From: Stramenopiles sp. TOSAG23-2
Taxonomy: Eukaryota
DNA length: 20,000 nucleotides
Direction: 5' to 3'
NCBI GenBank assembly: GCA_900128395.1
Contig: LT649244.1
Location: 47,611-67,610 of the forward strand
Made by a program: the position numbers and the translations under genes. Positions 2,108 to 16,575 of the stretch are shown here, one piece after another (within the stretch, counting starts at the first letter, position 1; each line of letters opens with the position of its first letter). The notes below the pieces were generated by a model. It saw only the letters and a program-made list of their open reading frames with translations, did no database searches and was not told the DNA's origin.

Positions 2108-4429
2108 TTACATTTTGGCGCCTAAGGTTGCAAAAATACTAGGAGATGCAGGCTCGCCAAATTTCTTTGCAAGTTTTTTTAATTCCCAGTCAGTTGTTAA
2201 TTTATGATGGTTTGGTTCTGCACCTTCCCAATGTGCATCCCATGCAACAGGCGCATCATCAACACTTGCAGTTTTCATTGCTTCCCACATACCAGGACCC
2301 CATCCGGCAGCATTAATCATATTTGTTCCTACTAATGCATGCGGTTCGCCAGTTTCCCCCCGTGGATAGAAGCGTCGAGATCCAGCTCTTTCTAGCAATT
2401 CATCAATCATGCGTGGTACGTTCATGTAGGTATCATAATATGTCTCATCACCATTACCGTAAACAGCATGTTGAAGACCTTTTAAAGGTTTATTTGGATT
2501 TTCTGATGCAGCTTTTAAATGATAATAAAATTCCCAGAAGTTTTTTGGTGGGTTACCATACATGCTTGATGTACATACAACTAAAAATTTCGTATTTTTC
2601 AATGAATTGAAATTAAAATCATTACCAGTAACAATTGAAGCAGGTTTTTCCAAATCGCCTCCCTCTGGGAACATTCCTAAAATATCTGTAGCATCACGCT
2701 CGGAATCACCCATGAAAAAGGATCCGAATACAAGTGCGACATCTTGACCACCAATATCTCCACTATCCATGGCTGGGGCACTATTATCACTTCCTTCTGT
2801 GCCATCAGCTGCTGCTGTTAATTTACCAACTTCCGTTGTTACAGCTTCATCCCATTCGATGATATCAACTTCGTCACCAACAACTTCACCAACTTCTTGT
2901 GATGGTGCAGAGCTATAGGTGATAGTAATAGGATCAGCCCCATTATTCTGTGGAATGGTAATAGTAGTGGTACTACCTGGAACAGTTCCAGTTACAATAG
3001 GCGGTGGAGGTTGTTTTACATATTCAGAAGCAGATGCACCTGCAACACGTCCAAATACAACACATTCAAGCAAAGCTGAGCCACCAAGACGATTACGTCC
3101 ATGGATACCACCAGCTAACTCACCAGCAGCAAATAATCCTGGGATTACACGATTTGAACCATCGTATACACATTCTGATTTTGGACTAATTGCAAGACCA
3201 CCCATTGTGTAATGTACAACTGGGGTAACTTGTGCGACGTAAAAACTGTCATTAATATCAAATGGTGCATTTGTGAAATAAATTTTACCAAATGGATCCG
3301 TACCTTTCTTTGCATAATCATTATATTGATCAAATGATTCTTTTAATTGTGAGGTAGGGATGCCCATTTCTGCAGCAAGGTCAGCACCACTGTCGAAATG
3401 CTTCATAACACGACGGGAGACGTAATGTTTACAATGCCAATCTAAATTTGATGCTGCAGCACTGTTCAATACAAGACGGTATGGTGCTTTGCCGTGTTCC
3501 CACATATTACCGGTTACATAATCACGTTTGCCGATATCATTGCAAAATCGAAAGCCATCGTTACCAAGTAAAATACCACCTTCACCACGCAATGCTTCTG
3601 CTGCTAAAAATTTAGTTTTATTGTCTGGATCATCTGGATTAACAAGACCAGTTGGATGCACTTGTACATGTTTCAACGCAATAGCTTTTGCACCAATATC
3701 CATGGCAATATCAATACCTTCGCCTTGGGAATGGTCACCGTTCGTTGTTGGCAAATGTACTAAATCTGGACGGATTTTTTCCAACAATGAACCTTTATGG
3801 TTGCCGCCAGCACCATAACCACCAGTTGCTAATACAACAGCATCTGCTACAACGGTTTCCATTGCACCATCACCATTTTCAAATTCCACACCAACAACAC
3901 GACCATGTGGATCTTTAATAAGCTTTTTCGCAGAGGCATTGATTACTAAGTCACACGTACCATCTTCGGCATCAGCTAACTGTTCATATTTTTGCATAAG
4001 TGCAGAAGTAATCTCCATGCCTGGAAATTTACCACCAGATTTTGAACGATGCGTACGTTGATTTGTATGCCCACCTAAACGGGATACAGTATCAAGAGCA
4101 AGACCAAAATTATCTTGGATCCAATGTACAGCACCTGCACTATTTCCTGCAATAACTTTTGCAAGTGGATATGGTGTAGGCATTGGACCAGTTTTCACAC
4201 CAGTAGCGGAACGTACGGTATCCTCAAGAAACTGATCAACACTATCTTTCAAACCCATTTTAGCTTGTGTACGACTACCAGCACCATTAATACCAGAAGT
4301 TGCTTTAGTACTATTACCACCAAGGAAAGGATTTTTTTCCAATAATGTTACTTGTACACCATTTTGTATGAGTGTATGTGCGGCTGATAAACCTGATAAA
4401 CCACCTCCAACAACAATTGCGCTTGGCAT
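2108..4429 (-). CDS. Soluble FAD-dependent fumarate reductase (Osm1/Frd1/flavocytochrome-c family) fused to a C-terminal flavodoxin-like domain
   Basis: GGGLSG Rossmann motif, GGNSTKATSGIN, QVHPT, AEALRGEGG, KRDYVT, VHYTMGG and GRNRLGGSALLECVVFG. Pro/Thr/acidic linker at aa ~472-562. Flavodoxin motifs VALVFGS, VVCTSSMYGNPPKN and LKGLQHAVYGNGDETY from aa ~563. C-terminus is AKM. Confidence 0.92.
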   Translation of the reverse strand: MPSAIVVGGGLSGLSAAHTLIQNGVQVTLLEKNPFLGGNSTKATSGINGAGSRTQAKMGLKDSVDQFLEDTVRSATGVKTGPMPTPYPLAKVIAGNSAGAVHWIQDNFGLALDTVSRLGGHTNQRTHRSKSGGKFPGMEITSALMQKYEQLADAEDGTCDLVINASAKKLIKDPHGRVVGVEFENGDGAMETVVADAVVLATGGYGAGGNHKGSLLEKIRPDLVHLPTTNGDHSQGEGIDIAMDIGAKAIALKHVQVHPTGLVNPDDPDNKTKFLAAEALRGEGGILLGNDGFRFCNDIGKRDYVTGNMWEHGKAPYRLVLNSAAASNLDWHCKHYVSRRVMKHFDSGADLAAEMGIPTSQLKESFDQYNDYAKKGTDPFGKIYFTNAPFDINDSFYVAQVTPVVHYTMGGLAISPKSECVYDGSNRVIPGLFAAGELAGGIHGRNRLGGSALLECVVFGRVAGASASEYVKQPPPPIVTGTVPGSTTTITIPQNNGADPITITYSSAPSQEVGEVVGDEVDIIEWDEAVTTEVGKLTAAADGTEGSDNSAPAMDSGDIGGQDVALVFGSFFMGDSERDATDILGMFPEGGDLEKPASIVTGNDFNFNSLKNTKFLVVCTSSMYGNPPKNFWEFYYHLKAASENPNKPLKGLQHAVYGNGDETYYDTYMNVPRMIDELLERAGSRRFYPRGETGEPHALVGTNMINAAGWGPGMWEAMKTASVDDAPVAWDAHWEGAEPNHHKLTTDWELKKLAKKFGEPASPSIFATLGAKM

Positions 4430-9195: not shown

Positions 9196-12100
9196 ATGAA
9201 TAAATTATGGATACCATATCATACATCCATGAAACAAATGTTGAGACGAAGACGATATGGAAATACATTAAATTATTATAATAATCATAATATTAGACTA
9301 TTACAAAAATATTCATCTACTTTAGAAAAAGAAGAATATACTAGGGTAGATCCAGTGGAACACGTTTTATTACGTCCTGGGATGTATGTCGGCGCAACAC
9401 AACGATCTAGTAGAGTAATGTGGCTTGTGAATCAAAATAATAGTGAAATGGAAAATGTAAATAAAGACGATGAAATTATAGATGCCACTTCTGCAATAAG
9501 TATTGGACAAGAAAAAATATCATTTACACCTGCATTATATAAAATTTTTGATGAAATACTTGCGAATGCAGCAGATAATGTTCAGCGAGATAGTAAAATG
9601 ACAAAGATCCACGTTGACATAGATGAAAATACTGGCGAAATATCCATATTTAACGATGGGGCTAGCATCCCAGTACGTATGCATGAAAAAGAAAAAATGT
9701 ACATACCAGAACTTGTTTTAGGTAATTTAATGACAGGGTCCAATTTTGATGATAATGTAGGTCGGTTAACAGGTGGCAGGCATGGGTTTGGTGCAAAATT
9801 AACAAATATATTTTCCAAACGTTTTGAAATTGAATGTGCCGATCCAAAAGAAGGTTTGCTATATAATCAAGTATGGGAAAATAATATGCAACAAAAATCC
9901 GTTCCACATATTGAGCCGTATAATAGCAAAAATGGTTATGTGCGAATAACATTTCAACCAGATTTTCATCGATTTAATATGGATACATTATCCGATGATG
10001 ATACATCTCGTGTTATGGAAAGAAGAGTCATCGATGTTGCTGGCGTGAACCCCCAGTTAGACGTGCAATTGAATGGAAAGAAAGTGCCGATATCCGATAC
10101 ATTTGGCTCGTATGCATCGTTGTATCAATCAAAAATAAATAAAGAACCAATAATATGTAAACCAAATAATCGTTGGGAGGTATGTGTTATGCCTTCACCT
10201 GATGGTATTTTTGAACAATTTAGTTTTGTTAATAGTTTAACTACTTTCCGTGGAGGTACACATGTTAATGTCATTGCAGATCAAATTGCACGTAATTTAG
10301 CACAACAAATCAATTCTAAACATGGTAAAATATTAGATCATCCCGTAACACCAATGCAAGTGAAATCACACATGTGGTTATTTGTAAAATGTTTAATTGA
10401 AAATCCATCTTTTGATTCGCAAACTAAAGAGTTTTTAGAAACGCCACCAAATGCATTTGGTAGCGTATGCTCTTTAAGTCCATCGTTCTTAAAAGATGTT
10501 TATCAAAACAGCGGCATTGTTGAGCGCGTAGTGGATTGGGCAAGGGCTAAGCAACAAGTTGAATTTATATCAAAAATGAAATCTCAGCCTAAATCGAAAT
10601 TGTTAAATATACCGAAATTAGAAGATGCGAATGATGCTGGTTCTGCAAAATCATTGGAGTGCTCGTTGATATTGACTGAAGGTGATTCAGCAAAGGCATT
10701 AGCAGTTGCTGGACTTTCAGTTGTCGGGCGTGATAAATACGGTGTATTTCCATTAAAAGGTAAAATGTTAAATGTGCGTGATGCACCTGCTAAACAAATT
10801 GTAAACAATGAAGAAATAAAAAATATTATATCGATATTGAATTTAGATATGAGAAAGAAATACAAAGGTGATGATTTAGCTGGTCAAGGTTTGCGTTATG
10901 GGCGTATTATTATCATGGCTGATCAGGATCATGATGGGTCGCATATCAAAGGTTTATTGTTGAATATGATAGCCTGTTTTTGGCCGGAATTGATTAAGAA
11001 AAAAGATTTTCTGTGTACTTTCAATACACCCATTGTGAAAGCATTTAAAAAAGGTCGTACAAAAAATAAAAAAGGGACCAAAACATTTTTCACATTGGCA
11101 AATTATAATAAATGGAAAACTTCCTTAACAGATGAGGAATTGAGAACATTTAATGTAAAATATTATAAAGGTCTGGGAACGAGCACAGCTGATGAAGCTC
11201 GATCATATTTTAGTCATTTAGATAAACATTTAGTTCCATTTTCACACGTAGGAGATGGTGATCGTGATTTTGAACGGTTGGATATGGCATTTCGCGGACA
11301 TCGCGCAGCAGATCGTCGGGAATGGCTATTGGGGCATTTGGAAAACGAAAAAACAAAGGAAGATGGAGATGGCCGGTTGCGTTTACAATCAAAAGTACCA
11401 ATATCAAAGTTTGTTGACGATGAATTGGTTTTATTTTCGTGTGCGGATAATATACGCAGCATTGGCAATGCTATTGATGGGTTAAAACCATCACAGCGTA
11501 AAGTCTTATATGCATGTTTCAAACGTAAATTAAAATCAGAAATTAAAGTTGCACAGCTGGCAGGTTATGTTAGCGAACATTCTGCGTACCACCATGGTGA
11601 AATGTCATTGCAAAGTACGATTATGGGTATGGCACAAGATTATGTTGGCTCCAATAACATTCCATTGCTATTTCCATCTGGACAATTTGGAACTCGTTTG
11701 CAAGGTGGAAAAGATAGTGCTAGTGCACGTTATATATTTACTAGGCTGCAAGCTGTTACACGTATGATATATCCAGTGGCTGATGATCCATTATTGACAT
11801 ACAATGATGATGATGGGTATTTAGTTGAACCAGAAATGTACGTGCCGATTATACCAATGGCTCTTGTTAATGGTATTGAAGGGATTGGCACAGGTTGGTC
11901 AACATCTGTTCCAATGTACAATCCATTGCATTTGATTCAATGGCTAATTGCGGATATGGAAGGTAAAAGTAAAAATAAGTTAATTCCATGGGTCCGTGGA
12001 TTTACTGGGGATATACGGCCAAAACGTGCCGTCAAAGGCTCTACCTCTGTTGCCACCTTTGAAAGCGCTGGTAAAGTCCACGTGAAAAACACTACTACTG

Positions 12101-12861
12101 TTGAAATAACTGAATTGCCAGTAAATCGATGGACGGAGGATCAAAAGCTTTTATTGACAAAATTATTAGCAAGTAAAACGATTACAAATTTTCGTGAACA
12201 TCATACAGAGGAGAAAGTTTCGTTTCGAATTACTTTGAAACGTAACCAATTGAAGGTACTAAATGATGAAGAAAAGTTGCTCCGATTGTTTAAATTAATA
12301 TCACCAATACATACATCAAATATGCATTTATTTGATGCTACTGGTACTATTAAGAAATTTCATACGCCGGAAGATGTAATTGAGGAATATTATCCAGTAC
12401 GATTGAATTTGTATGAAGATAGGAAAAACTATGAATTATCAAAATTGAGTGTGAAGAAAAAAATGCTTGATAATCGTTCTAGATTTATCGAAATGGTTAG
12501 TGATGGTAACATTGAAATTCAAAATCGTAACCGTGATGAAATTGCTGCATCATTATCAAGCAATGGATTCTTAACTAAATCTGCCATAAATGATTCAAAT
12601 ATGGAAATGGAAATGATTGATGGTGAAAACATTGAAGAAAATTCACATCTTGATTCAGCCGAATGGAAAGAGTATGATTATTTACTAAATATACCATTGT
12701 GGCAACTCAGTGCTGAAAGTGTTGAAACACTTCGAAAAGAAAATATAGAAATTAATGAGAAAGTTCATTTAGTGGAAAATACTTCAGCAGAAGCTATGTG
12801 GAAAAATGAATTGGGTACCTTGTCGAATTATTTGAGTACTAAAAATAAAGGTTATCAATAA
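9196..12861 (+). CDS. TOP2: DNA topoisomerase II (type IIA), probably organellar
   Basis: EHVLLRPGMYVG; GHKL motifs EILANAADN and GRHGFGAKL; TOPRIM motifs EGDSA, PLKGK and DQDHDG; YYKGLGTS; DGLKPSQRK; catalytic ASARYIFT (Tyr846, codon 11731). Arg-rich, acid-free N-terminal extension and no charged C-terminal tail. Confidence 0.97.
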   Translation: MNKLWIPYHTSMKQMLRRRRYGNTLNYYNNHNIRLLQKYSSTLEKEEYTRVDPVEHVLLRPGMYVGATQRSSRVMWLVNQNNSEMENVNKDDEIIDATSAISIGQEKISFTPALYKIFDEILANAADNVQRDSKMTKIHVDIDENTGEISIFNDGASIPVRMHEKEKMYIPELVLGNLMTGSNFDDNVGRLTGGRHGFGAKLTNIFSKRFEIECADPKEGLLYNQVWENNMQQKSVPHIEPYNSKNGYVRITFQPDFHRFNMDTLSDDDTSRVMERRVIDVAGVNPQLDVQLNGKKVPISDTFGSYASLYQSKINKEPIICKPNNRWEVCVMPSPDGIFEQFSFVNSLTTFRGGTHVNVIADQIARNLAQQINSKHGKILDHPVTPMQVKSHMWLFVKCLIENPSFDSQTKEFLETPPNAFGSVCSLSPSFLKDVYQNSGIVERVVDWARAKQQVEFISKMKSQPKSKLLNIPKLEDANDAGSAKSLECSLILTEGDSAKALAVAGLSVVGRDKYGVFPLKGKMLNVRDAPAKQIVNNEEIKNIISILNLDMRKKYKGDDLAGQGLRYGRIIIMADQDHDGSHIKGLLLNMIACFWPELIKKKDFLCTFNTPIVKAFKKGRTKNKKGTKTFFTLANYNKWKTSLTDEELRTFNVKYYKGLGTSTADEARSYFSHLDKHLVPFSHVGDGDRDFERLDMAFRGHRAADRREWLLGHLENEKTKEDGDGRLRLQSKVPISKFVDDELVLFSCADNIRSIGNAIDGLKPSQRKVLYACFKRKLKSEIKVAQLAGYVSEHSAYHHGEMSLQSTIMGMAQDYVGSNNIPLLFPSGQFGTRLQGGKDSASARYIFTRLQAVTRMIYPVADDPLLTYNDDDGYLVEPEMYVPIIPMALVNGIEGIGTGWSTSVPMYNPLHLIQWLIADMEGKSKNKLIPWVRGFTGDIRPKRAVKGSTSVATFESAGKVHVKNTTTVEITELPVNRWTEDQKLLLTKLLASKTITNFREHHTEEKVSFRITLKRNQLKVLNDEEKLLRLFKLISPIHTSNMHLFDATGTIKKFHTPEDVIEEYYPVRLNLYEDRKNYELSKLSVKKKMLDNRSRFIEMVSDGNIEIQNRNRDEIAASLSSNGFLTKSAINDSNMEMEMIDGENIEENSHLDSAEWKEYDYLLNIPLWQLSAESVETLRKENIEINEKVHLVENTSAEAMWKNELGTLSNYLSTKNKGYQ

Positions 12862-12974
12862 AAATTATATGCATCATATATATATATATTTTTATTTTAC
12901 ACACGCATAATTTATTTTTAATTTTTACTCATTATACGAAGTCGTATATTATATACATATCGTAACACATGTTT

Positions 12975-15644
12975 TCATACCTTTTCTTGAAAACCCGTTA
13001 ATGCTTCTTCCACTTTATCATTTAATTCATTGATAAATACATCTATTTCAACTAATCTATTCTTACCATTTTCCATTTTAATCCATTTTTCAAATTTCTT
13101 TTTTAAAGATTCAAGTGTCATTGGTCTATTGATTAAATCATCACGGAAAATTATATACATGCATTGATTTGTCGCTGAGATTAAATCAAACGTGAAATCT
13201 TCTAACATTTTGGAATCTGTAAAGAAATTCTTGTCATCATCATTATCATCATTGGGGTCATCCTTTTTTAATGATGATACAGGTGGATCTGGAAATTTTC
13301 GCAATATATCCATATAACCATTGTTAAATTTTTCTAGTGTGGCTAAAATAATTTCCTTTTCATCATTGAAAATGTTGCTGTGATTTAAAGCCATTTTACG
13401 ATTAATATTGTTGATAATCGTTCTATCACCACCACCAGTACCACTTCCATCACCTTCATCTTCGTCATCATCTCCATCAAGTTCCATATTATCCTCCAAC
13501 ATATCTTCATCGTATATTAAACCTCCCTTATCTAACACTTCTTCTAAATTCGCAATCATTGCATCGCGTTCTGTTACATATTCTTTTAAATTTGCCTCTT
13601 CCAATTGCGTCAATAACATACAATTGACTAATAGTTTTCTAATTTTAGCCGACAGTTCATATACATCTGAACGATGTATTGGTGTTTCCAATTCACAGTC
13701 ATTAACTTCCTTGCAATACGAATGCGTTAAACCAAACATACCAGGTGCATATACAGGTTTTCCATGCAAATAACATCTACCTGTTACTTTTGTTTTTATT
13801 TTATAATCACCATTTAAATCTGTATATTCATAAATTCGATGTATCATACATAAATCTTCATCTGCAAAATGCATTACAAATTCTTTATTGTTTGCTATAC
13901 AATATGCAACTAAAAATCGATTGCGAGGCTCAAAACAAAGAAATTCTTGCTTCATTCCAGGAAAATACAATTGTCCTGCGCCCCATTTAAATACAGGCAA
14001 GGCTTCCATGTCATCTTTATCCTTCAATGGTGCAAATATACTTCCATTTTCCTCATTTGAAAACTTCTGTGCACTATATACTGTCTTACCATATAATTTA
14101 TTAAATTCCATCACTCCATTTGTTGTTAGATTACAAAATGAATATTGTGAAGGAAGATCGTTATTATCATTTAATTCACGAAAAATGGTATATGTTGTCG
14201 CTTCATCAAAGACGTTCGTATCACCATCCTCGTTAGATGGGCCAATGCCTTGTTTGCAATAAGTACCAATCGATGGCAATGGAATTTTAGTATTGTTGTC
14301 ATTATTATTTACATTTACAATATGATTATTTACCAATTCGTTCCATGAATTCATTTCAAAATCATCATTGCCATAATAATGATTACCATGATAAGATGAA
14401 AACATCATCATTCCAGCAATATTATTCGTATAACCATTCTCATCGACATGGTCACCACCATCACTACCATGATCCTCCTGATCATTGTTGGATACCGATG
14501 ATAATAGATTTTTATCTACATATTCTTGCAAGGTGACGCATATATTACGTGCCATGAACATTGGATCCTCTTGTAACAATACTACTGATTCATCCTCTGC
14601 ATCGTCTACTATATCACCACTAAATTCAAACTTTGCAAAATTTGGTGCAATTTCACCTTTTTCTTCATCGTATTCCGTTACCCATTGATACTCCCTTCCT
14701 GGGCCATTGATACCATCAACTTCTGGAAACAATATACGATCATAATCTGGTATATACGAAAGCCATTGTCGTAACTCTGGATTAGTACTTAACGAGAAAA
14801 AATTACCATCGTGTATACTAGCATTTTCTAATCGAAATGAATTTGCATATGGTTGTGTCGTGATAATATCCATTGCAACATTGCCTTCAATGGATAACCC
14901 GGCAAACCCATTATAATGTATGTCATTGCCTAAAAATATACGATTGTAACTAATATTACCAACTTTAGATGCTTCTGGCATCAACCCATTGATTGGTCCA
15001 AGTACAGTATTCATATCATATGATGGTGTGGAAAAAAATAGCATATTTAAACTATTTTCATACTGTTCCTTATCTATTTTTAACCTATCAGAAAATAATT
15101 GCAAGCATTCCGGTGGCATTCCATCTTCTTCTGATGAAAATGTTAAAAGAGAACACTTATCATCGAAGGAACCTATCATTAATGAAGCTTCCACACCACT
15201 ATCTTTCGTATTTGTTACGTTCAAATCATCTTGTTTGATATTTCTTGAGTTACATAAGTTTATATTATCATTCCCAATAACAATATTGAAATTATCATTT
15301 AATAGAGCTAATATTTTTTTAATATCTTCATCTGTTTGATCTGTTGCGAAGAAAAAAGCAACTAAATGTTTATTTTTATTGTCAAAAATTAATGTATCGT
15401 TTGACTTTATCTTAGTAATTTCATTCGATATTTTGTCAACCAATGGTATGGTTACATCATCAATTAAAAATTCTTTTGATACAAAATGTAAATATCTTTT
15501 ATTATTGTAAAGGTGACTATTATTATTATTATTAAAATGCAGTGATTGTAGATTGGCATTACATAAAAATAAACATTGTCGTCTTGGGCGATATTTATTA
15601 CCAACGCTTCTGAAAAATGGTTTCGTATATTTAGTTAACATCAT
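12975..15644 (-). CDS. FIST-N/FIST-C plus Lon N-terminal (PUA-like) domain protein with presequence-like N-terminus
   Basis: FIST-like blocks MPEASKVGNIS..IFLGNDIHYNGFAGLSI and AGMMMFSS..PSIGTYCKQGIGP..TYTIFRE (aa ~95-490). Lon-N-like LPVF..LYFPG..FLCFEPRNRFLVAYC (from aa ~548). The 889-aa ORF is uninterrupted. Confidence 0.72.
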   Translation of the reverse strand: MMLTKYTKPFFRSVGNKYRPRRQCLFLCNANLQSLHFNNNNNSHLYNNKRYLHFVSKEFLIDDVTIPLVDKISNEITKIKSNDTLIFDNKNKHLVAFFFATDQTDEDIKKILALLNDNFNIVIGNDNINLCNSRNIKQDDLNVTNTKDSGVEASLMIGSFDDKCSLLTFSSEEDGMPPECLQLFSDRLKIDKEQYENSLNMLFFSTPSYDMNTVLGPINGLMPEASKVGNISYNRIFLGNDIHYNGFAGLSIEGNVAMDIITTQPYANSFRLENASIHDGNFFSLSTNPELRQWLSYIPDYDRILFPEVDGINGPGREYQWVTEYDEEKGEIAPNFAKFEFSGDIVDDAEDESVVLLQEDPMFMARNICVTLQEYVDKNLLSSVSNNDQEDHGSDGGDHVDENGYTNNIAGMMMFSSYHGNHYYGNDDFEMNSWNELVNNHIVNVNNNDNNTKIPLPSIGTYCKQGIGPSNEDGDTNVFDEATTYTIFRELNDNNDLPSQYSFCNLTTNGVMEFNKLYGKTVYSAQKFSNEENGSIFAPLKDKDDMEALPVFKWGAGQLYFPGMKQEFLCFEPRNRFLVAYCIANNKEFVMHFADEDLCMIHRIYEYTDLNGDYKIKTKVTGRCYLHGKPVYAPGMFGLTHSYCKEVNDCELETPIHRSDVYELSAKIRKLLVNCMLLTQLEEANLKEYVTERDAMIANLEEVLDKGGLIYDEDMLEDNMELDGDDDEDEGDGSGTGGGDRTIINNINRKMALNHSNIFNDEKEIILATLEKFNNGYMDILRKFPDPPVSSLKKDDPNDDNDDDKNFFTDSKMLEDFTFDLISATNQCMYIIFRDDLINRPMTLESLKKKFEKWIKMENGKNRLVEIDVFINELNDKVEEALTGFQEKV

Positions 15645-15877
15645 CTTTCATGTGCAAGCAAAAGGTTTTATAATATATTCGTGGAATATGTTGTTTGATA
15701 TAATGATATATAATCGTATATGTTACGTATATGTATCGATATATTCACATACTAATAATAAAATGTAAATTCAGTGTACCTAGGTAGTGTTAATGCAAAT
15801 GCACAAATCGAAAATCGAAGAAGATGGTCGGTAATTGGTAATGGAAAAGGACGAAGTACATTTGCACATTTCTAATT

Positions 15878-16050
15878 CTGGCATTCCATTCCAGCATTCC
15901 AGGCATTCCAGCATTCCTGGCCTTGCTGGCCGCTGGCCTTAGGGCTGGCCCAGCTGGCCCAGCTGGCCCAGGGCTGGCCCGGCTGGCATTCCACCCATTC
16001 CTGGCATTCTGGCTGGCTGGGCTGGCCTTAGCTGGCATTCCAGCATTACC
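15878..16050. repeat. GC-rich island of short GCATTCC and GCTGGCC units; possible non-autonomous mobile element core
   Basis: Abrupt GC rise. Clusters of gcattcc flank a central array of gctggcc(ca). The island is flanked by a 10-bp direct repeat AAGTACATTT (15854-15863 and 16051-16060). Confidence 0.8.
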
Positions 16051-16575
16051 AAGTACATTTATTCCTAGACTAGCTACTATGGCCATACCAGAATCTACAT
16101 TTGGCATACTTCACTAGATGGATGATGAGATGGATATATTCGTTATACTTGGTACGATATCAATACAGTCTTATTATGATGGTATTTCTATATAAAAATA
16201 CGATGTGAAACACACATCAGAGGGGTGTCCATAATACACGCCGTATACAAATATATATATATCATACAATATAAACTATTTATCCAATGAGATATAAAGA
16301 GAAATATATTTCATCAAAGTATATACATCATATCTAAACAACATTGAATTTGTATTTATTTATATAAATTACCCATCTTGAAATGTATTTTAGAATATAT
16401 TGATAGCAGTTTATTGATTGGTAGTCCATTGCATTGCCTTACACGTATAGTTCATTCAAGAAATGCGTGGGGGGAAAATCGATTTTGGATCAGCGAGGGA
16501 ATACCTGGGTGGGGATGGGCTGGTCAAGTGAAAGCAATTGCAAAAGAACACGAAGCGTCTTTGGATTGCGTAGAT

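Follow-up and report, generated by a model that had tools for sequence, protein, structure and literature searches.

What kind of protein results when a FIST fold shares one chain with a Lon substrate-binding domain, and where in the cell would such a protein act? The question is raised by a reading frame in Stramenopiles sp. TOSAG23-2, within positions 47,611-67,610 of contig LT649244.1, the 20,000-nucleotide (nt) stretch analysed here (the window, to which the coordinates below refer). The DNA is AT-rich and eukaryotic, with a GC content of about 0.3, and an open reading frame (ORF) encoding 889 residues runs on its minus strand from 15644 to 12975 as a single exon without an internal stop. 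The original prediction saw in this frame a FIST sensor domain fused to a Lon-N/PUA-like domain and proposed a ligand-gated proteolysis adaptor inside mitochondria. We find that the FIST + Lon-N fusion is real, that its ligand-sensing interpretation requires revision, and that its role as an adaptor is plausible.

Plain Pfam searches are blind to the domains of the window protein (P0001) because it has diverged too far: whole or in halves, it matches no family aside from a weak Tubby-like match in the C-terminal half (E 0.004), and it has no match among PDB sequences. The expected recovery of Pfam FIST and LON_substr_bdg thus failed for this protein and succeeded for its full-length orthologue P0040 (~27% identical), which passes both cut-offs, with 25.0 bits for FIST (cut-off 23.2) and 39.8 bits for LON_substr_bdg (cut-off 28.7). 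In the Atlas, the predicted structure of P0040 aligns with a bacterial FIST cluster at residues 8-416, with a template modelling (TM) score of 0.77, and with LONRF clusters at 455-721. Profiles of our own score the window protein at 11.5 bits for FIST and 15.1 bits for the LONRF Lon-N domain, values that none of 500 shuffled sequences reached; with a FIST profile of this kind the orthologues score 13-50 bits (P0040 47.9 bits). The alignment from a direct search with the window protein (A1), whose sole match is a phage sequence, was judged a chance result and set aside.

Structure prediction bears out the same architecture. A first model, built from an alignment of 7 fusion sequences only and free of bacterial rows, is poor overall (mean predicted local distance difference test, pLDDT, 47); it matches Lon N-domains at Z 12.3-12.7 over residues 545-885 (E. 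coli Lon N, 2ane: Z 12.6, root-mean-square deviation, rmsd, 1.8), with a Foldseek match to Lon-N at E 6.5e-7, and FBXO22 at Z 8.9 over residues 52-491. A second model, restricted to the FIST part and leaning on an alignment deepened with 64 bacterial FISTs, reaches a pLDDT of 82 and a predicted TM score (pTM) of 0.84. It matches FBXO22 (8ua3) at Z 21.4 (277 aligned residues, rmsd 3.3, model residues 2-441), and three structural repeats form the pseudo-three-fold globule that marks the FBXO22-type FIST fold. The next fold matches, chorismatase (Z 11.2) and barbiturase (Z 9.3), are also named as fold relatives in the FBXO22 structure paper (bioRxiv 2024.06.03.594717). When the FIST and Lon-N halves were modelled together as a complex, without alignments, the score was 0.00, which carries no weight for or against a contact between them. 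The resulting layout of the gene, all on the minus strand, is as follows.

12975..15644, minus strand: whole ORF, FIST-fold + Lon-N fusion (P0001), supported by the reading frame and by RNA-library contigs colinear across both domains
15492..15644, minus strand: residues 1-51, basic, acid-free, unstructured extension, a probable mitochondrial presequence judged by composition (pLDDT about 25)
14175..15491, minus strand: residues 52-490, three-repeat FBXO22-type FIST fold (models, profiles), in which repeat 2, the best-conserved part, spans about 173-265 and is followed by an insert at about 266-352
14385..14402, minus strand: FSSYHG, residues 415-420, replacing FSCxGRG (alignment)
14396-14394, minus strand: Ser417, aligned with FBXO22 Cys326 (alignment)
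14013..14174, minus strand: residues 491-544, linker that varies in length and is poorly conserved (alignment; one bridging RNA-library contig)
13695..14012, minus strand: residues 545-650, beta (PUA-like) subdomain of the Lon-N domain, carrying LPxF..PG..FEPRxRFL and 25 invariant positions
12978..13694, minus strand: residues 651-889, Lon-N helical subdomain of long helices with an acidic insert (about 706-738), weakly conserved

As the original prediction had observed, the fusion protein has no AAA+, protease, RING or F-box part. Walker A, Lon catalytic-serine (GxSAG) and RING patterns are absent from all six orthologues, and Pfam RING and F-box do not match them, whereas the LONRF proteins of the same genome score clearly for RING. 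Two folds and their linkers fill the chain, which ends with the Lon-N helices, and in none of the six proteins do the ~20-51 variable, unstructured residues ahead of the FIST fold match Pfam F-box. A fragment of a Lon gene was considered and rejected: the frame is closed by stops, the orthologues are full-length, and the Lon genes lie on other contigs.

Evidence that the gene is transcribed as one unspliced message is fair rather than strict. A sequencing-run search listed 24 runs; 20 contain some of this sequence and 14 are recorded as RNA, from 9 studies; four runs (3 studies) were mapped onto the window as contigs only, which give neither strand nor expression level. Their contigs are colinear over the FIST and Lon-N parts, and one, at 13950-14211, bridges the whole linker between them. 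Cover is thin at the beginning of the ORF (first 400 bases) and zero in 4/4 runs across the intergenic bin 15774-16090, and among these contigs none spans the entire ORF and none shows an intron-like joint inside it. Two records suggestive of splicing, X4 (13804 joined to 15516 with 7 foreign letters) and X1 (18256 joined to 13787), were rejected, both falling at AT-rich spots with loose ends.

The FIST half was typed with profiles from three random sets of 17 bacterial FISTs carrying the FSCxGRG motif (GRG type) and from 17 FISTs of other types. The GRG-type profiles give the six orthologues 12-58 bits, as against -1.5 to 6.8 bits for the other-type profile, a set that includes sequences with NosP-like motifs but no named NosP and that we take as a stand-in for NosP; a profile of 11 proteobacterial GRG-type FISTs gives 1.7 to 11.8 bits. 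By this typing the FIST is of the FBXO22 / FSCxGRG type and unlike the remaining bacterial FIST types in the sample. The GRG-type profile also recovers human FBXO22, at E 5e-12, and the motif cysteine, counted along the alignment, is its Cys326, a reactive cysteine exploited by several degraders according to PMC12583737. The fusion thus shares with FBXO22 (8ua3, 8s7d) the three-repeat fold and the FIST sequence type, but lacks an F-box and carries instead an attached Lon-N domain, a FIST insert of about 90 residues and a presequence-like N-terminus. With the bacterial GRG-type FISTs (about 400 residues, function unknown) it shares homology over the whole FIST part, best in repeats 1-2, although those proteins stand alone in the sample and keep their signature intact.

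That signature is lost in the fusion. In all 64 bacterial rows the C, G, R and G of FSCxGRG, the following D and a near-end His are invariant (invariance of GFFxxGEIGP in these rows follows from the search pattern chosen, but FBXO22 retains this motif independently), and FBXO22 keeps the whole FIST_C signature (FSCxGRG ... GFFxxGEIG ... His). The original prediction correctly read FSSYHG in place of the usual motif: serine replaces the motif cysteine in 6/6 orthologues (Ser417), and the canonical FIST_C Arg, Glu, FF, His and GDFL block are kept in none of the six. The fusions have their own constrained positions. Repeat 2 is conserved at 75% to P0035 and 40-45% to the distant pair, P0040 and P0053, with fusion-specific invariants FSTPS, PxECxxLF and KxG...RxF; S205-T206-P207-S208 in repeat 2 and S416-S417 in repeat 3, which sit at matching ends of strands, are invariant; D126, K227, R235 and three cysteines (164, 180, 369) are likewise invariant. 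Repeat 3 is poorly conserved (20-24% identity between clades). Because repeat 2 is the best-conserved part and has invariant motifs of its own, together with the three cysteines, plain decay is disfavoured, and we infer that the domain has changed its job or ligand while being kept under constraint. Two other FIST genes were seen in the same genome: a C-terminal fragment of an FBXO22-like FIST with FTCGGRG and GFFAGGEIGP, its signature largely intact (L022:444-890; G000:C7570), and a protein of a different type in a 788-residue frame with N-terminal membrane-like segments, matching Pfam FIST and FIST_C only and having no recognised output domain (L015:526-2892; G000:C629).

The Lon-N half is a complete domain with both beta and helical parts, not the PUA-like part alone as the original wording implied. 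A profile of six fusion C-halves scores the genome's RING-Lon-N proteins (L016, L018, L019) at 53.8, 38.4 and 17.7 bits, its Lon-N-only ORF at 21.2 bits and nine bacterial stand-alone Lon-N proteins at 9-24 bits, as against at most 1.7 bits for eleven protease-attached N-domains. A relation to LONRF is also supported by hhalign (95.9%) and by the Atlas structure neighbours of P0040 residues 455-725, most of which are LONRF clusters, and 7cay is a profile match at E 0.006. By sequence type, the domain is of the LONRF / stand-alone kind, with the LONRF ubiquitin ligases closest. Conservation is concentrated in the beta part, where 25 of 106 positions are invariant (72% to P0035, 30-35% to the distant pair), as against 1 of 239 in the helical part. 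LONRF1-3, which combine RING with a Lon substrate-binding domain, are nearest in Lon-N sequence and predicted structure and share the FEPRY-type motif, but where they carry RING (and TPR) the fusion has a FIST fold, and its probable location is the matrix. LonA shares the N-terminal substrate-binding fold, but its protease-attached N-domains are far in sequence type and the fusion lacks both the AAA+ module and the Ser-Lys protease domain. The chloroplast iLON / LON-like / LCP1 proteins and bacterial stand-alone Lon-N proteins (7cay, 1zbo) are protease-free Lon-N domains alike in fold (Z 12.3-12.4). They consist of Lon-N only, whereas the fusion adds a 440-residue FIST in front and appears mitochondrial; plant and algal iLON / LCP1 are reported to be organelle-targeted, and the N-terminal composition of the fusion fits a mitochondrial presequence on a home-made count.

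Relatives are few. Protein searches covered 5.8 billion and 1.84 billion proteins, with word filters and strict E-values that distant fusions can escape; the window protein found 4 matches among 6338 candidates and, in another search, 14 matches, 7 of them at 1e-30 or better, while P0040 as query found 2 among 7999 and 2 among 8000. Metagenome contigs added 5 loci from 101 pattern matches. Six representatives were retained: P0001, P0003 (65%, truncated), P0035 and P0005 (53-55%), and P0040 and P0053 (25-27%); fragments (P0006, P0008, P0012, P0013, P0016-P0018) were excluded from the alignments, and P0006, which skips residues 174-255, is probably a gene-calling artefact. P0014 and P0015 (E about 1e-5) were rejected as repeat proteins matching a low-complexity stretch. 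Within these searches the relatives come solely from marine protist sequences, one member of the P0053 cluster being named 'Stramenopile-MAST_4' by its source. The gene has one match in its own genome, and the differences counted (3 silent, 4 + 2 replacement) are too few for a ratio of nonsynonymous to synonymous substitution rates. A known, widespread family, which would have told against novelty, was not seen in these searches, and no description of a FIST + Lon-N fusion was found in the literature searched (most subscription journals and all supplements lay outside its scope), so that the protein is a combination of known parts for which that literature gave no description, as originally suspected.

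A fused bacterial operon as the origin was rejected, since neither a bacterial fusion nor an adjacent gene pair appeared in the loci and genomes searched. No Lon-N gene lies within up to 5 kb of a bacterial FIST at 0/80 loci, using a profile that picks up Lon-N domains standing alone but failed on 10 of 11 attached to a protease; in 121 + 251 bacterial genomes P0040 had 7 + 19 matches, each single-domain in a frame of at most 499 residues; and none of 50 pattern matches in viral contigs was a fusion. In a FIST tree of 71 rows (P0004 and P0007 left out) the fusions form one clade with support 1.0 on a very long stem, whose placement does not single out a donor. As an FBXO22-like gene and LONRF genes both occur in the source genome, the simplest guess is that the Lon-N half was acquired by fusion inside eukaryotes. 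At 8 cyanobacterial loci (L026, L027, L030, L035, L059, L062, L069, L080) the GRG-type FIST gene has a small neighbour that resembles CP12 by eye.

Around the fusion gene the neighbours are unrelated housekeeping genes. It adjoins tail to tail a type IIA topoisomerase gene (9196-12861, plus strand) whose 1221-residue product has a basic, acid-free N-terminal extension of 43 residues and stops soon after the topoisomerase IV A-type domain; it looks like a mitochondrion-targeted TOP2. Two further records, L002 and L003, are 98-99% identical to the fusion gene and depart from the window sequence at position 12893, ~80 bases past the stop (departing parts L002:2803 onward and L003:1126-4138), owing either to an insertion polymorphism between the two genes or to an assembly difference. 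Beyond this point L003 holds at least 3 kb, where one ORF is a double thioesterase (4HBT) and another an ankyrin protein (weak F-box match), a stretch with no match in G000 by DNA search. Upstream, 15790-16107 (minus strand) consists of GC-richer repeats (GCTGGC / GGAATG units) with a 105-residue low-complexity ORF and almost no RNA cover in the 4 runs. At 2108-4429 (minus strand) lies a gene for a fumarate reductase-like flavin adenine dinucleotide protein fused to a flavodoxin domain, with the C-terminus AKM.

The presequence-like N-terminus noted originally recurs across the family. The first 30 residues of the window protein hold 7 R/K and 0 D/E, the first acidic residue being residue 58, and all six orthologues have an extension of ~20-51 residues, unrelated in sequence and free of hydrophobic stretches, their first 30 residues holding 4-8 R/K and 0-2 D/E. 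On the Kyte-Doolittle scale, every 19-residue window of the six stays at or below 1.2. A similar N-terminal composition is found in the window's DNL zinc-finger gene, whose family we take to be mitochondrial, and by eye in the HslU and HslV frames. Judged from these N-termini, the fusion protein is probably imported into mitochondria.

The genome encodes potential partners there: a mitochondrial-type Lon, a second Lon, HslU, HslV and a ClpX-like ATPase. ClpXP, the other partner originally suggested, is doubtful, as ClpP was not found in this genome, which is incomplete and so gives no proof of absence. The HslU and HslV frames have presequence-like extensions and the ClpX-like ATPase has long inserts (L157, L161 and L159; G000:C717, C6272 and C683). 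The mitochondrial-type Lon lies on a short contig (L150:3159-5188; G000:C3710) in two overlapping frames sharing a stretch around MDRMEVITLSGYDLPEKV; an intron or a short duplication could account for the split, as could an assembly error. Precedents for protease-free Lon-N proteins beside AAA+ machines come from chloroplasts: Arabidopsis LON-like2 showed a 7-fold enrichment in a CLPC1 trap (PMC8889267), and Chlamydomonas LCP1 was placed near HSLU2, CLPC1 and ClpP (bioRxiv 2025.08.22.671721). For the separate modules, LONRF2 is reported to bind and ubiquitylate misfolded proteins (PMC10226518), and FBXO22 to bind BACH1 via a FIST surface at the edge of repeat 3 (bioRxiv 2024.06.03.596960, 2024.06.03.594717).

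The reading we put forward, at a little under an even chance, is that the protein serves protein quality control in the mitochondrial matrix as a non-catalytic adaptor, alongside Lon, HslUV or ClpX. The N-terminal extension would direct import and then be cleaved; the Lon-N beta subdomain would bind damaged or specific clients; the FIST, as in FBXO22, would serve as a protein-binding platform, not a heme or nitric oxide (NO) sensor, its conserved repeat 2 holding a client or partner; and the complex would either deliver clients to an AAA+ machine on another chain, be it mitochondrial Lon, HslUV or the ClpX-like ATPase, or protect them from it. Two substrate-recognition modules of ubiquitin ligases, each without its E3-recruiting part, would thus operate in a compartment that relies on AAA+ proteases. 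The adaptor part of the original proposal is plausible and has an organellar precedent in Lon-N-only proteins reported with AAA+ unfoldases; gating by heme or NO is the part that is not supported. Several points weigh against this reading. Client, partner and location are proposals drawn from sequence, model and analogy. The binding mode of FBXO22 is not simply transferable, because its BACH1-binding repeat (FIST-3) is poorly conserved here, and the invariant polar residues at symmetry-related FIST positions could still form a ligand site. Presequences were judged by a home-made count, which other proteins partly pass (a DUF4796 ORF has 8 basic and 2 acidic residues) and which leaves import no more than likely. 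The chloroplast precedents are associations whose function is unclear according to their authors, and for Arabidopsis LCP1 the reported effect is inhibition of thioredoxin y2 (PMC8889267; bioRxiv 2025.08.22.671721).

Those polar residues would fit a ligand- or redox-gated adaptor, in which a rewired FIST senses a metabolite or thiol redox state, though not the canonical ligand, and controls the Lon-N domain. The fusions have their own invariant set (S205-T206-P207-S208, S416-S417, D126, K227, R235) where bacteria have theirs, the three invariant cysteines could respond to redox state, and the next fold relatives, chorismatase and barbiturase, are small-molecule enzymes; yet the C and R of FSCxGRG, present in 64/64 bacterial rows and kept in FBXO22, are gone in 6/6 orthologues, buried cysteines are often conserved for structural reasons, and we regard this version as rather unlikely. 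A sensor of heme or NO like bacterial NosP, gating proteolysis, is very improbable. Mitochondria do synthesise heme, and NosP and CdpA share the FIST-FIST_C Pfam pair with the fusion by descent and are linked to NO and heme, with a mechanism reported as little known (PMC8846402, PMC8738867). By profile, however, the fusion belongs to a different FIST type (-1.5 to 6.8 bits for the non-GRG profile, taken to stand for NosP by its motifs, against 12-58 for the GRG type), has no kinase or cyclic di-GMP output, and contains no His invariant across the FIST part, no CxxCH and no CP motif in the six orthologues, while the FBXO22 FIST is reported to have no obvious ligand pocket and heme-insensitive binding (bioRxiv 2024.06.03.594717).

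Proteolysis might not be involved at all. A mitochondrial scaffold, inhibitor or assembly factor, binding one enzyme or complex, or RNA through the PUA-like part, and leaving AAA+ proteases aside, would accord with the inhibition of thioredoxin y2 by LCP1, a non-proteolytic effect, and with the barely conserved helical subdomain (1 of 239 positions invariant), hardly what a conserved contact to a Lon-like coiled coil would lead one to expect; the best-studied relatives of both modules are nevertheless reported to use them for substrate recognition in degradation systems, and we give this alternative a low probability. More doubtful still is a role outside mitochondria, in the cytosol or nucleus, as a cereblon-like substrate receptor for a ubiquitin ligase, with the helical part of the Lon-N domain docking on an E3 scaffold: the fold matches include cereblon (Z 11.7), both modules are known from E3 systems, and the helical insert is long, but that helical part is not conserved and the presequence-like extension is present in all six orthologues.

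For the matrix adaptor favoured here, a wider and distinctly speculative version, which we consider unlikely, is that FIST + Lon-N proteins form one old, patchily kept organellar family (stramenopiles, algae, mosses), whose members, assembled from the recognition modules of FBXO22-type and LONRF-type ubiquitin ligases, would act as mitochondrial receptors choosing clients for Lon or HslUV, possibly under metabolite or redox control through the rewired FIST. Whatever its function, a FIST lineage without the signature that bacterial FISTs and human FBXO22 both retain, with its degrader-targeted Cys326, offers a natural comparison for the role of that signature. Little is understood of client choice by organellar AAA+ proteases, for which Lon-N-only proteins are candidates; the fusion protein adds a second recognition module to this type and points to mitochondria. 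If the client-selecting family were borne out, a mitochondrial AAA+ protease of eukaryotes would have an adaptor of its own that is subject to regulation.

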